This document shows, piece after piece, positions 9,839-13,455 of a stretch of DNA of 60,535 nucleotides. The notes under the pieces were generated by a model. That model searched no databases, had not been told where the DNA came from, and saw only the letters and a program-made list of their open reading frames with translations. The position numbers and the translations under genes were made by a program. The stretch's first letter is position 1. Each line of letters opens with the position of its first letter. This stretch comes from an uncultured Candidatus Saccharibacteria bacterium (GTDB lineage: Bacteria; Patescibacteriota; Minisyncoccia; Phycocordibacterales; Phycocordibacteraceae). The stretch spans positions 1 to 60,535 of the forward strand of contig CAZYZM010000001.1 of assembly GCA_964651935.1 (NCBI GenBank), written 5' to 3'.

Positions 9839-10330
9839 CTATGCTTGCTTATTAAGCTCTTCTATGGCTTTTTTTTGCTTGCCAATACTAAGAACACCGT
9901 ACTTCTCCCTCTCTACATCGGATATGGAGAGGTCAGTCTTATATAACTTCCATTTTGCATTTTTTCCTGCCTTATAGAATTGTGTGCCGAATTTTTGCGG
10001 TTCGTCCTTTCTCATTAATAATCTATCTGTGCTAGCAGCATATAACCAACCAGCCTTCTTAAGGCCTTTATTAAAACTTAGGAGAGCATATCTTTTCGCA
10101 TGTTCAGAATCTGAAATTGTTACGCCATGATGAAAGATCCACGCGATATAATATAAAGATTTTGAAGACAATCTATTTATATCGCTTCCAACATCAGCAA
10201 GGATATCTTTAATAATTTTTCTCCTTTCCTTATCATGTTTAATGATAACTTCTGGCACTTTTGTACTGGATGACCTCTCTTTAAGGTCCTCCTTATAGAG
10301 AGAGGCTATTTTGCGCTCGAATTCCTTCAT
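9839..10330 (-). CDS. hypothetical Lys-rich protein on the AT-rich islet
   Basis: 163-aa ORF in sequence hand-counted at about 30% GC per 60-nt line. No recognised motif. Confidence 0.6.
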   Translation of the reverse strand: MKEFERKIASLYKEDLKERSSSTKVPEVIIKHDKERRKIIKDILADVGSDINRLSSKSLYYIAWIFHHGVTISDSEHAKRYALLSFNKGLKKAGWLYAASTDRLLMRKDEPQKFGTQFYKAGKNAKWKLYKTDLSISDVEREKYGVLSIGKQKKAIEELNKQA

Positions 10331-10346
10331 CTGAAATATTCTACCA

Positions 10347-10376
10347 AATTAAAAAGGCAGTCTGTATAGACTGCCT
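10347..10376 (-). terminator. intrinsic terminator after the ATP-grasp gene
   Basis: AGGCAGTC-TGTATA-GACTGCCT: an 8-bp stem followed on the minus strand by TTTTTAATT, 5 nt after the stop codon. Confidence 0.8.
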
Positions 10377-10380
10377 CTAG

Positions 10381-11325
10381 TTAAGTCGTAAGTAACTTTG
10401 CCATGGCCCTGGCGAGCGGGTAATTAGTACAAGCTTCAATCCAGGCCCATTGACCATTAGCATTGATTTCAAGGAAGGTATACCCTTCGTCGTTCTTGAT
10501 GAGATCAATTGCTCCAAATTTCAAACCAAATCTCTCTACAATCTCGATGCACTTAGCTTCGATTGCTTCCGGTAAATTGTAGGCAGTGTGCCCTATAATT
10601 CCGTCATCGTAGTGCCTCCAATCAATGCATGTTTTTGCGTTGACTTGGGAATCAATTTTCGCTGAGAAAGCAGATTTTCCGATGACCGTGACCCTTACCT
10701 CATATAATTTCTTTATACAAGGCTGGAATATCCCCGGAGCAAGTCGAAATTCGTCCGAGTAAGAAGAATCTAACAAAGCAGTATCTAATATCTGCGTATA
10801 GATTACCTCACCACTATCTCTGCTTATTTCACCACTGTTCAGAGCTTTATAAACGAGGCCGTCTGAGCCAAACTTGCCATTGAATGCTCTTACCTCATCT
10901 TGAGAATTCGTCATCAGTGTGGGAGGAATGGTAAGCCCAATTTCCTGAGCCACTTTTAACTGTGCTAACTTATTGGAAGCAACTTCAATTGCTTCTGGAT
11001 TACTGACCCATCGAGCATTTCTCATTGAGACCCACAGATTCTTTAAAAAGCTTTTCCATTCGGAATGGACAAAGCTCTCATACTCAGAATCAATGGGTAA
11101 ATCGGGAATGGATCTTCTCCGCAAGTAAACTGCGGAAATATTATTTGTGTCCATGCGCCGTCTTGATGCAATATGAAGCAGCTCCGCACCATCCAGCGTA
11201 AGAGCTATTTCATACTCATATATCGCTTCAGTATTGAGGCGAAAGAACGGCACCCCTAACTTCTCTAATTCCATGGCCACGAGATCAGCATGAACATCAT
11301 CTTTCCTCGTTACTATAAGGATCAT
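10381..11325 (-). CDS. ATP-grasp ribosomal-peptide maturase (MdnB/MdnC, MvdC/MvdD-like graspetide macrocyclase)
   Basis: Start chosen at MILIVTRKDD (ATG 11325), preceded by GGAGGG; the ORF track starts at 11337. Blocks SAVYLRR, NKLAQLKVAQEIGLTIPPT, YEVRVTVIGKSAFSAKIDSQ..IDWR and FGAIDLIKNDEGYTFLEINANGQW follow the microviridin-type ATP-grasp layout as I remember it. Confidence 0.75.
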   Translation of the reverse strand: MILIVTRKDDVHADLVAMELEKLGVPFFRLNTEAIYEYEIALTLDGAELLHIASRRRMDTNNISAVYLRRRSIPDLPIDSEYESFVHSEWKSFLKNLWVSMRNARWVSNPEAIEVASNKLAQLKVAQEIGLTIPPTLMTNSQDEVRAFNGKFGSDGLVYKALNSGEISRDSGEVIYTQILDTALLDSSYSDEFRLAPGIFQPCIKKLYEVRVTVIGKSAFSAKIDSQVNAKTCIDWRHYDDGIIGHTAYNLPEAIEAKCIEIVERFGLKFGAIDLIKNDEGYTFLEINANGQWAWIEACTNYPLARAMAKLLTT

Positions 11326-11356: not shown

Positions 11357-11384
11357 GAGGCGGATTCAGTAATGAATCCGCCTC
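11357..11384 (-). promoter_or_regulatory. perfect 11-bp stem-loop between precursor and maturase (candidate attenuator or partial terminator)
   Basis: GAGGCGGATTC-AGTAAT-GAATCCGCCTC, read directly. It sits 3 nt after the precursor stop codon. Confidence 0.6.
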
Positions 11385-11387
11385 ACT

Positions 11388-11570
11388 TTAATGCGCCTCG
11401 TCGCCGACCTGGTCCCCTCTCGGGGTATATACCGTAGTTGGTGACATATACATCGGATTCACGAGATCCTGTGGATCTCGCAATGACCTTTGCATATCAT
11501 CCGAGTAAGTTAGAGGCGGAGTTGGTACCTCATACCTCTTCTCGGATAGGCGCGCAGCTAAAGGACCCAT
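11388..11570 (-). CDS. candidate graspetide precursor peptide (60 aa)
   Basis: GGAGAG sits 5 nt upstream of the ATG, and a consensus promoter lies upstream. The C-terminal SPTTVYTPRGDQVGDEAH is rich in Thr/Ser donors and Asp/Glu acceptors. It lies immediately upstream of the ATP-grasp gene. Confidence 0.6.
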   Translation of the reverse strand: MGPLAARLSEKRYEVPTPPLTYSDDMQRSLRDPQDLVNPMYMSPTTVYTPRGDQVGDEAH

Positions 11571-11615
11571 TACTTCTCTCCTTAGACTGCGTGGAGGCCG
11601 ATTCCTCCGTGAGGA

Positions 11616-11644
11616 ATATTAACTATAGAATAGTAGATTGTCAA
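11616..11644 (-). promoter_or_regulatory. near-consensus sigma70-type promoter for the precursor gene
   Basis: The minus strand reads TTGACA-atctactattctatagt-TAATAT (17-nt spacer). The -10 element ends about 45 nt upstream of the ATG at 11570. Confidence 0.65.
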
Positions 11645-11664
11645 GTATTCGTCATTAGCATCTC

Positions 11665-13455
11665 TTAGGTATCGGCCTGAAAACTCCCCGCCTGGATGCT
11701 CCACAGCTTGTGGTAGAGGCCGCCCTGCTGGCTCAAGAGCTCGGCGTGGGTGCCCTGCGCCGCGATAGCGCCGTTCTCGATGACGACGATGCGATCCATG
11801 GTCATGATGGTGGAAAGGCGGTGCGCGATGACGATGACGGTCTTACCTTCCATAAGCGTCCTGAGCGCCTCCTGGATGAGGTGCTCGCTCTCTGAATCGA
11901 GCGCGCTCGTCGCCTCGTCGAGGATGAGTATCGGCGCGTCCTTGAGGATGGCGCGGGCGATGGCGACGCGCTGGCGCTCGCCGCCCGAGAGCTTTACGCC
12001 GCGCTCGCCCACGTGCGTGCCGTACCCTTCCGGAAGCTGCGAGATGAACTCGTGGCAGCGCGCCTTCTTGGCGGCTTCCATGACCTCCTCGTCGGTCGCG
12101 TCTTGGCGCCCGTAGCGGATGTTGTCCATGAGCGAGCGATGGAAGAGTATCGGGTCCTGCGGCACGAAGGCGATGCTCCGGCGCAGCGAATCCTGCGTGA
12201 CCGAGCGGATGTCCTGCCCGTCGATGACGATGCTGCCGCTCGTAACGTCATAGAGGCGCAGGAGGAGCTTGGTGATGGTCGACTTGCCGGCGCCCGACGG
12301 CCCGACGAGCGCGACCTTCTCATGCGGCGCGATAGCGAGATTGAAATCAGCGAGCACTGCGCTTTCCTCGGTGAACGTGAAGGTAACGTCGCGGAGACCT
12401 ATCGCGCCCTTCTGAACAGCAAGCTCCGTGGCGTCGTACGCATCCTCGACCTCGACCGGCGTGTTGATGACGACGATCATCTCATAGGCATCTGCGAATG
12501 CCTGGTACAGCCGCCGGAAGCTGTTGCCGAGATTCCATACGCGGTCCATGAGGCCGATAACGTACACCTGGATGAGCAGGAAGTCGCCGACGGATATGGC
12601 TCCCCGCTCCCAGAGGAACACGCCGCCGCCCAGCAGGCCGACCTCGATGAGTATCGCGAAGAGGCCCTGGATCGCGAATATGATCTCGTCCGCGTTCCAC
12701 GAGCGGAGTATCGCCTTCTTCCAAGCGCTCACCGCCGTGCGATAGAGCGAGCGCTCCCACCCTGCCGAAGCGAACATCTGCACGGTCGAGTGGTTCGATA
12801 CCGCGTCAGAGAGCAGCCCGCCCACCTTGCTGTCCGCTTCCGCCGCCGCGATGCGGAGCGGCTGGCGGATGCGCGCCATGACTACCTGCAGGGATATGAA
12901 TACGACCATCCACACCAGAAGCGCGAGCGCGAGGAGCGGGCTGCGCTGGCCGAGGACGTACATGACGCCGACCGCGAAGATGAAGGTGGAGAAGAAGCCG
13001 AAGACGATGACATCGAATATCTGCTCGAATGCGCGCGCATAGCGGTTCACCCGCCGGGTCAGCGTGCCGGTGAAATTGGAGATGAAGAACGAGTGCCCGT
13101 GCCGAAAGAGGTTCTCGAAGGCGTTGTCGGAAAGGTCTTCCATCACCTTCGCCTCAAGGGCCTGGTGCGAGAACATCTGGATGCGGCGGCCAGTCCAGCC
13201 GACGAGATTCATGAGCGCGAACATCCCTATGAGGAAGAACGCGGCATGCGCTATCGGCGTACCCGGGTCTGCTTCTGAAAGCAGGTCGATGAAGCGCTGT
13301 ATGTACAGCGGGGCGCCGATGGCCCCTGCTTGGATGATGATCGCGCCGATGAACGGGAGGGTCAGGAGGAAAGGGTGCTTCCTCAAGACCTGCGCGTATG
13401 CGGTGAGGACAGCCCTGACATCGGTCTTCTTTGCCTTCGTAGGCGCCGGGCTCAT
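11665..13455 (-). CDS. ABC exporter, fused permease/ATPase (MsbA/type I exporter-like)
   Basis: 596 aa with six N-terminal helices. Walker A GPSGAGKST, signature LSGGERQR, Walker B ILILDEATSALD. Confidence 0.9.
   Translation of the reverse strand: MSPAPTKAKKTDVRAVLTAYAQVLRKHPFLLTLPFIGAIIIQAGAIGAPLYIQRFIDLLSEADPGTPIAHAAFFLIGMFALMNLVGWTGRRIQMFSHQALEAKVMEDLSDNAFENLFRHGHSFFISNFTGTLTRRVNRYARAFEQIFDVIVFGFFSTFIFAVGVMYVLGQRSPLLALALLVWMVVFISLQVVMARIRQPLRIAAAEADSKVGGLLSDAVSNHSTVQMFASAGWERSLYRTAVSAWKKAILRSWNADEIIFAIQGLFAILIEVGLLGGGVFLWERGAISVGDFLLIQVYVIGLMDRVWNLGNSFRRLYQAFADAYEMIVVINTPVEVEDAYDATELAVQKGAIGLRDVTFTFTEESAVLADFNLAIAPHEKVALVGPSGAGKSTITKLLLRLYDVTSGSIVIDGQDIRSVTQDSLRRSIAFVPQDPILFHRSLMDNIRYGRQDATDEEVMEAAKKARCHEFISQLPEGYGTHVGERGVKLSGGERQRVAIARAILKDAPILILDEATSALDSESEHLIQEALRTLMEGKTVIVIAHRLSTIMTMDRIVVIENGAIAAQGTHAELLSQQGGLYHKLWSIQAGSFQADT

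Follow-up and report, generated by a model that had tools for sequence, protein, structure and literature searches.

The question raised by this locus is whether a 60-residue open reading frame (ORF) just upstream of an ATP-grasp ligase gene encodes a precursor peptide and, if so, which ring pattern its core would adopt. Graspetides are protease-inhibiting, multiply cross-linked peptides in which short motifs of the core determine the pattern of rings. The window, meaning the whole stretch of 60,535 nucleotides that was analysed, comes from a genome of the Patescibacteria (CPR), bacteria with minimal genomes that live attached to other microbes. An initial annotation of the window had proposed that the ORF encodes a precursor whose core differs from the microviridin pattern. 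Our analysis indicates that it is very probably a graspetide precursor, composed of a leader and a C-terminal core whose side chains would be cross-linked by the adjacent ligase.

The precursor gene and its homologues

The following features of the cassette are used throughout the text.

11388..11570, minus strand: precursor peptide gene, 60 amino acids plus stop, with an ATG start (from the ORF listing)
11576..11583, minus strand: Shine-Dalgarno-like sequence AAGGAGAG, 5 nt before the ATG (read from the sequence)
11616..11644, minus strand: promoter-like TTGACA-17 nt-TAATAT ahead of the precursor gene (10 of 12 matches in a consensus scan)
11357..11384, minus strand: 12-bp stem-loop, 3 nt after the precursor stop and before the ligase start (terminator-like scan; RNAfold -23.6 kcal/mol)
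10381..11325, minus strand: ATP-grasp ribosomal peptide maturase, 314 amino acids (ATG at 11325; longest ORF from 11337)
10353..10378, minus strand: intrinsic-terminator-like hairpin after the ligase gene (11-bp stem, then TTAATTT)
9839..10330, minus strand: divergent DUF6624 or "cluster 23" protein, 163 amino acids, the third cassette gene (homologues lie downstream of the ligase)

The precursor ORF is a real gene, with homologues in conserved positions and under purifying selection. The translation given for it in the initial annotation is identical to that in the ORF listing, and it ends about 50 nt upstream of the co-oriented ligase gene. The pairing of the peptide with this ligase, also proposed at that time, is borne out by the arrangement itself, since the ligase gene follows directly downstream and the same order is found in 10 of 10 loci of the ligase clade (100/100 support). 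Each of these ten loci contains a homologous ORF of 60-86 amino acids in the matching position. Absence of the short ORF from homologous loci, which the initial annotation had named as evidence that would speak against a precursor, was therefore not observed. The three closest homologues of the ligase (58%, 56% and 48% identity) each have a 60-residue ORF directly upstream on the contig. Compared with the window peptide, the encoded products show identities of 73%, 65% and 48%.

The same annotation had also allowed for conservation confined to the DNA. Pairwise Nei-Gojobori comparisons of the precursor genes gave saturated synonymous differences (pS 0.81-0.91) and constrained nonsynonymous differences, with pN of 0.22-0.35 overall and 0.10-0.25 over the last 23 codons. 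This combination indicates selection at the level of the protein and not of the DNA. The gene is single-copy in the genome. The precursor region has no match in Rfam, and the peptide has none in Pfam or NCBIfam.

AGGAG or GGAGG also precedes the precursor starts in three other loci of the family (L002, L003 and L005). The TTGACA-17 nt-TAATAT site is only suggestive as a promoter of the precursor gene, because such sites are no more frequent in the region than in shuffled sequence. The stem-loop at 11357..11384 probably acts as an attenuator or stabilises the transcript. All 8 of the 8 loci examined have a strong hairpin, unrelated in sequence, at this position in the precursor-ligase spacer, and a hairpin in this spacer is the usual arrangement in RiPP operons. 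A 76-residue ORF on the plus strand (11438..11668) runs across the precursor gene and the promoter region. It is probably spurious, because the homologous gene calls and the conservation pattern are all on the minus strand and no homologue or gene call supports it.

The family to which the peptide belongs is small. A profile built from four sequences recovered only four members in a word-indexed search of 5.8 billion proteins. A nine-sequence profile gave 23 matches with E <= 1e-3 in an exhaustive HMMER search of 1.84 billion representatives, about 20 of which are peptides of 41-86 amino acids. In a small-ORF HMM scan of 80 genome loci with related ligases, members were present only beside the closest ligases, in Wolfebacteria, in a MAG labelled 'Saccharibacteria' and in another MAG; two further members lie on contigs of the Parcubacteria Gr01-1014_33 type and the Lloydbacteria type. 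The family amounts to approximately 20 clusters among the 1.84 billion representatives. As far as named records show, it is confined to CPR bacteria. In the accessible portion of the text of PMC8939145, which treats 174 precursor clusters, the family strings GDEAH, GDESH, YMSPT, GDESC and GDESI were not found, nor were Wolfebacteria or Lloydbacteria accessions in the accessible portion of its supplementary text. The strings GDEAH and MSPT were likewise not found in the portion of the PMC13097080 supplementary text that was available. Within those portions, the family is apparently undescribed and belongs to a type of locus that has been described.

Leader, core and predicted ring pattern

Three segments of the peptide are conserved in the family.

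11544..11564, minus strand: predicted leader recognition motif PLAARLS, residues 3-9 (counterpart of PFFARFL / Phhx(1,2)h)
11490..11507, minus strand: second conserved leader block YSDDMQ, residues 22-27 (Y[SD]xxx[QE] in the family)
11391..11459, minus strand: predicted core region NPMYMSPTTVYTPRGDQVGDEAH, residues 38-60 (conservation increases once more from N38 onwards)

The family consensus consists of the leader motif P-[FL]-[AFGV]-x-x-[FLH], the mid-leader block Y-S-x-x-x-Q and the C-terminal core (N-P-x-x-M)-S-x-T-x-x-x-T-x-x-G-D-x-x-x-D-E-[AS]-x. The initial annotation had stated that the peptide lacks a leader motif of the PFFARFL type, and this statement has to be revised. PLAARLS falls in the same column block as PFAALFV, PFAARFV, PFAGRFA and PFFARFL of its relatives. 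The P[FL][AFGV]xx[FLH] motif is present in 25 of 28 family members, where it is followed by an acidic or hydrophobic residue, and one member (P0154) contains PFFARFLE exactly. In addition, residues 3-8 (PLAARL) fit the published Phhx(1,2)h signature and lie within the first 30 residues; Makarova et al. (PMC8939145) describe this signature as the general counterpart of PFFARFL, a ligase-activating helix. The leader was compared with known leaders by hhalign. The leader and YSxxxQ blocks together aligned with the published Parcubacteria precursor KKU17154.1, which has a PFAALFA leader, over 39 columns (probability 65%, E 6e-5). The leader block also gave a short and weak match, over 15 columns (probability 9.7%), to PFFASFLE in a precursor of the chryseoviridin type from the PMC8939145 supplement. 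Judged by the family alignment and these comparisons, PLAARLS is probably a degenerate counterpart of PFFARFL. In the second block, Y22 is invariant in 28 of 28 sequences, and a similar YSxxxNLSV or YDEELQ block is found in multi-core relatives.

The candidate donors of the core are S43, T45, T46 and T49, and the candidate acceptors are D53, D57 and E58. This numbering had been given correctly in the initial annotation, as had the position of the donors (S43-T49) before the acceptors (D53-E58). Its description of the core also agrees with our results in other respects: the core SPTTVYTPRGDQVGDEAH does not conform to the microviridin pattern TxKYPSDx(D/E)(D/E), no Lys is available for an omega-amide because the only one, K11, is in the leader, and the peptide carries one core without a repeat.

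In the alignment of 28 sequences T45 is invariant, and conservation of P3, D57 and E58 reaches at least 90%. Each of the 24 long cores contains T49 and D53, and nearly all of them contain G52. Four members, two from Wolfebacteria together with P0156 and P0161, have short cores from which the segment with T49 has been lost. In three of these four, D53 is replaced by N or Q, and T45, D57 and E58 are kept. This joint loss of T49 and D53, with D57 and E58 retained, points to a pairing of T49 with D53 and not with D57. Four members carry G or A in place of S43. Of these, three have T46, and the remaining one has R46 and lacks E58 as well. A hydroxylated residue is not universal at position 43 or 46. 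A nested set of rings, T49-D53, T45-D57 and S43/T46-E58, would fit this covariation better than a microviridin-like crossed pattern. The nested topology is offered as a hypothesis, because the covariation comes from only two or three independent lineages.

Two further observations concern the cores. The window core contains an RGD tripeptide (TPRGD; R51-G52-D53, 11418-11426, minus strand), which occurs in 3 of 28 family members (the window, P0127 and P0138) and, at that frequency, is probably incidental. The core of P0154 (68 amino acids), MSPTKYPTNLNDEGQDEAH, includes a T-K-Y-P stretch that recalls TxKYPSD, with a Lys that could form an amide. P0154 looks like a bridge between microviridin-like cores and the cores of the window family.

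The ligase, the third gene and the genomic setting

The ligase more likely starts at the ATG at 11325, since GGAGGG lies upstream of it and the resulting protein matches the MILIVT N-termini of homologues. It contains the PF21068 MvdD pre-ATP-grasp domain (Pfam, E 9e-12) and is the one PF21068 ligase in the genome. Its best PDB matches are MdnB (5ig8, 3.5e-41), AMdnB, MdnC and CdnC. NCBIfam ATP-grasp maturase models match it at 2e-63 to 4e-37 (TIGR04187/04185/04184 at 2e-63 to 2e-52), below every equivalog cut-off; for example, it scores 207.7 against a cut-off of 425 for MvdC and 178.5 against 475 for MvdD.

A maximum-likelihood tree was calculated for 86 ligases, reported as the window, ten family loci and 76 other genome loci. 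The ligases accompanied by a family precursor form a single clade (100/100), in which the window ligase groups with those of L002 and L003 (100/98). This clade is nested among ligases with multi-core precursors of 2-4 repeats (TETFTKTxxExSDSD, LTKTxVxxExDD). Its sister (96/89) is a Bacteroidota set that includes the ligase accompanying the Flavobacterium frigidarium precursor, which is placed in 'cluster 13' of Makarova et al., corresponding to the thuringinin-like groups 3/5/6 of Lee et al. (PMC8939145). The position in the tree suggests that the window system is a single-core, CPR-centred offshoot of the thuringinin-like radiation. By ligase phylogeny, it does not belong with the microviridins in the strict sense.

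In L003, L005, L087 and L088, the gene immediately downstream of the ligase encodes a homologue of the 163-residue protein. The match of the window protein to Pfam DUF6624 (PF20329) is sub-threshold (E 0.02-0.07; 13.1 bits against a cut-off of 27), and hhalign aligned it with bona fide DUF6624 over the C-terminal 56 columns (probability 95.6%, E 1.2e-8). It contains the motifs H-H/QH ... DRLLx5QKFGTQ, as in the published cluster 23 alignment QH...DR(L/V)...Q(K/x)FGTQ. Cluster 23 or DUF6624 proteins are reported to be typical of CPR graspetide loci (PMC8939145) and of graspetide groups 18, 20, 23 and 42 (PMC13097080). The AF2 model of the protein (pLDDT 93.8) is a helical repeat with a small beta element. 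A Foldseek search for a known PDB fold returned only generic TPR-like helical repeats at E 0.05 or worse. The modelled helical-repeat fold would be no less suited to a partner that binds peptides or proteins than to an enzyme. A terminator-like hairpin precedes the gene, which may therefore have a transcript of its own, apart from that of the ligase.

Several features of this protein and its surroundings were noted in passing. The window protein is Lys-rich and has no signal peptide or lipobox; many 'cluster 23' proteins have been described as secreted lipoproteins. In L002, the closest relative of the window locus (Logan SRR16915460; ligase 58%, precursor 73%), no DUF6624 gene is present downstream. 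Immediately upstream of the L002 precursor (L002:2232-3693) are a JmjC_2/cupin protein of 316 amino acids and a UCP032817-like protein of 174 amino acids, which could be a tailoring hydroxylase pair. In GCA_041643395.1 (L005/L006:6006-8818), a second, bona fide DUF6624 paralogue (172 amino acids, E 3e-15) lies less than 3 kb downstream of the cassette, as does a 501-residue radical SAM (Fer4_12) protein.

The cassette is an islet of low GC content (41.8%, or 0.418) in a window of 61.9% (0.619). At other loci the GC content of the cassette is nearer to that of its flanks, within 0-13 points. Neither the cassette nor a comparable ligase was found in the 24 congeneric genomes searched. One of these genomes (G004:C12:44050-44808) has an MvdD-type ligase in a 352-residue open frame with 36% identity; this unrelated ligase indicates that other kinds of graspetide cassette occur sporadically in the genus. 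The most plausible reading of the three-gene cassette is a low-GC islet gained by horizontal transfer. At one ENA contig of the family (L003:2045-2317), a DDE_Tnp_1 transposase fragment with a weak Pfam hit directly follows the three-gene cassette, which is consistent with mobility of the cassette.

A neighbouring ABC transporter gene was considered as the exporter of the cassette and rejected, being a high-GC resident core gene that lacks a peptidase domain and is unlinked to the cassette at other loci. The transporter is present in 27 of 30 congeners, and its relatives are named in Paceibacterota, Parcubacteria and Kaiserbacteria. No empty site was recognised in the congeners, in which the neighbours of the transporter are not syntenic within 1.5 kb. 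The assembly (0.67 Mb, 95% complete) yielded no leader peptidase or C39 transporter; many graspetide loci have no dedicated peptidase (PMC8939145). On the Lloydbacteria-type contig, the cassette is followed, after about 2.6 kb, by a gene of the Peptidase_C39/C70 type (L088:4755-5620), a candidate leader peptidase or exporter there, with no counterpart in the window genome.

Proposed maturation, alternatives and comparison with known systems

We infer the modification of the peptide, the number and connectivity of its rings, its cleavage site, its export and its biological activity from the features described above. In the proposed scheme, the N-terminal leader helix (PLAARLS, backed by YSxxxQ) would dock on the ligase and activate it. 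The ligase would use ATP to phosphorylate Asp and Glu carboxylates of the C-terminal core, and attack by Thr and Ser hydroxyls would then close two or three omega-ester (macrolactone) rings. The most likely connectivity would be nested and hairpin-like, with T49-D53 around the P-R-G turn, T45-D57, and S43 (or T46)-E58. Just beyond the stop codon, the stem-loop probably makes the precursor transcript more abundant than the ligase transcript, and the downstream DUF6624 helical-repeat protein may be a conserved accessory that acts as a partner, a chaperone or a processing factor. Several observations weigh against this explanation, namely the terminator-like hairpin between the ligase and DUF6624 genes, the absence of DUF6624 from the closest locus, L002, the failure to find a leader peptidase or C39 transporter in the 95%-complete assembly, the lack of a peptidase domain in the resident ABC transporter next to the cassette, and the members without a hydroxylated residue at positions 43 and 46. 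Protease inhibition by the window peptide would be only an analogy with other graspetides.

One alternative retains a genuine graspetide precursor and replaces the nested rings with interlocked ones that form a cage as in microviridins, for example through the links T45-D53, T49-D57 and T46 or S43-E58. Among solved structures, the ligase is closest to MdnB and MdnC of microviridin pathways, the leader is of the PFFARFL type, P0154 combines PFFARFLE with the T-K-Y-P stretch, and three donors precede three acceptors, as in microviridins. However, D53 is lost in three of four short cores without T49 and D57 and E58 are kept, position 46 is not conserved as a nucleophile, and the ligase clade lies among thuringinin-like multi-core ligases rather than microviridin ligases, with the window ligase far under the MvdC and MvdD cut-offs. 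The cage is therefore considered possible but rather unlikely.

The two remaining alternatives question whether the peptide is matured at all. It is improbable that the cassette is an inactive passenger, its genes intact and its peptide not made or not matured, with no peptidase or exporter. Its three ORFs are intact and have a plausible promoter, RBS and terminator, the whole family is under purifying selection, and many graspetide loci manage without a dedicated peptidase (PMC8939145); these points are set against a recently acquired low-GC islet that was not found in congeners, in a genome of only 0.67 Mb whose assembly contains no recognised C39 peptidase. Very little credence is given to the reading of the small ORF as another small protein, such as a regulator or an antitoxin-like partner, or as a translated leader that controls expression of the ligase. 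Its strongest conservation is in the C-terminal Thr, Asp and Glu residues and in the leader motif common to proven graspetide precursors. The hairpin directly after the stop could be an attenuator, but its position is conserved and its sequence is not. The lack of a Pfam or NCBIfam match would also suit a non-substrate, whereas the saturated synonymous sites, with no visible RNA-level constraint, and the lack of an Rfam match do not suit a regulatory leader.

The preferred reading, a graspetide precursor with nested rings, can be compared with four known kinds of system. The CPR loci of Branch 1/2 of Makarova et al. 2022 (PMC8939145) resemble the window in host type and in the short precursor upstream of a single ligase. 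They also share the Phhx(1,2)h leader, the TxxxT donors followed by acidic acceptors, and the cluster 23 protein. The Branch 1 core TxxxTx(6-10)Dx(1-4)D is not matched strictly by the window core, TxxxT-x3-D-x3-DE, in which no reading fits both spacers. Group 42 of Carter et al. 2026 (PMC13097080), with 22 BGCs that are largely from candidate phyla and of which 82% have DUF6624, shows the same architecture of precursor, ligase and DUF6624 in CPR. Its representative core FTTHGTPNDPD shares a TTxxTP start with TTVYTPRGD of the window. The family profile has no detectable similarity to the representative precursor of this group (hhalign, E 0.46).

The thuringinin-like multi-core systems (cluster 13) have in common with the window the P-h-h-x-x-h leader and the Y(S/D)xxx block, and, as in the window family, donors at i, i+2 and i+6 are followed by three acidic acceptors with one ligase for all links. 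Their precursors contain 2-4 repeated cores (TxTKTx3-4ExDD / TETFTKTxxExSDSD), whereas the window family has one C-terminal core, and the spacing S-x-T-x3-T-x3-D-x3-D-E, with a conserved G before D53, is unlike that of thuringinin-like cores. Microviridins and chryseoviridins (group 1) have a PFFARFL-type leader, of which the window peptide carries a probable degenerate counterpart and P0154 the exact form, and the window ligase is homologous to MdnB, MdnC and CdnC. In both, the core occupies the very C-terminal end of the peptide, and its donors precede its acceptors. The window differs in that it has no Lys for an omega-amide, one ligase instead of two, and no GNAT or other microviridin accessory genes.

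The general picture is unchanged by this locus, since the diversity of graspetides and CPR graspetide loci of such architecture have already been published. A more far-reaching proposal would be a new graspetide group with an uncharacterised ring pattern (three nested or partly crossed esters on a fully C-terminal S-x-T-x3-T-x3-D-x3-D-E), for the maturation of which DUF6624 is obligatory and whose product mediates interactions of the episymbiont with its host or competitors. We regard this proposal as speculative and doubt that it holds as a whole. Given the minimal genomes and attached lifestyle of CPR bacteria, a secondary-metabolite cassette that is kept or acquired probably matters for that lifestyle. 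The locus is a compact, easily expressed three-gene system with a single core of 23 residues, and it could be used to probe the predicted ring topology, the activation of a ligase by a degenerate PFFARFL-type leader and the role of the widespread DUF6624 or 'cluster 23' proteins. Precursors of 137 amino acids with four repeats of T(F/Q)TKTxxxRE(S/G)DD were also noted in two Nitrospirota MAGs (L013:2580-2993 and L056:485-898). In their leader (RPFITLYAE ... YDEELQ) these precursors are similar to the single-core family, and they are good comparators for the evolution of single-core and multi-core substrates.
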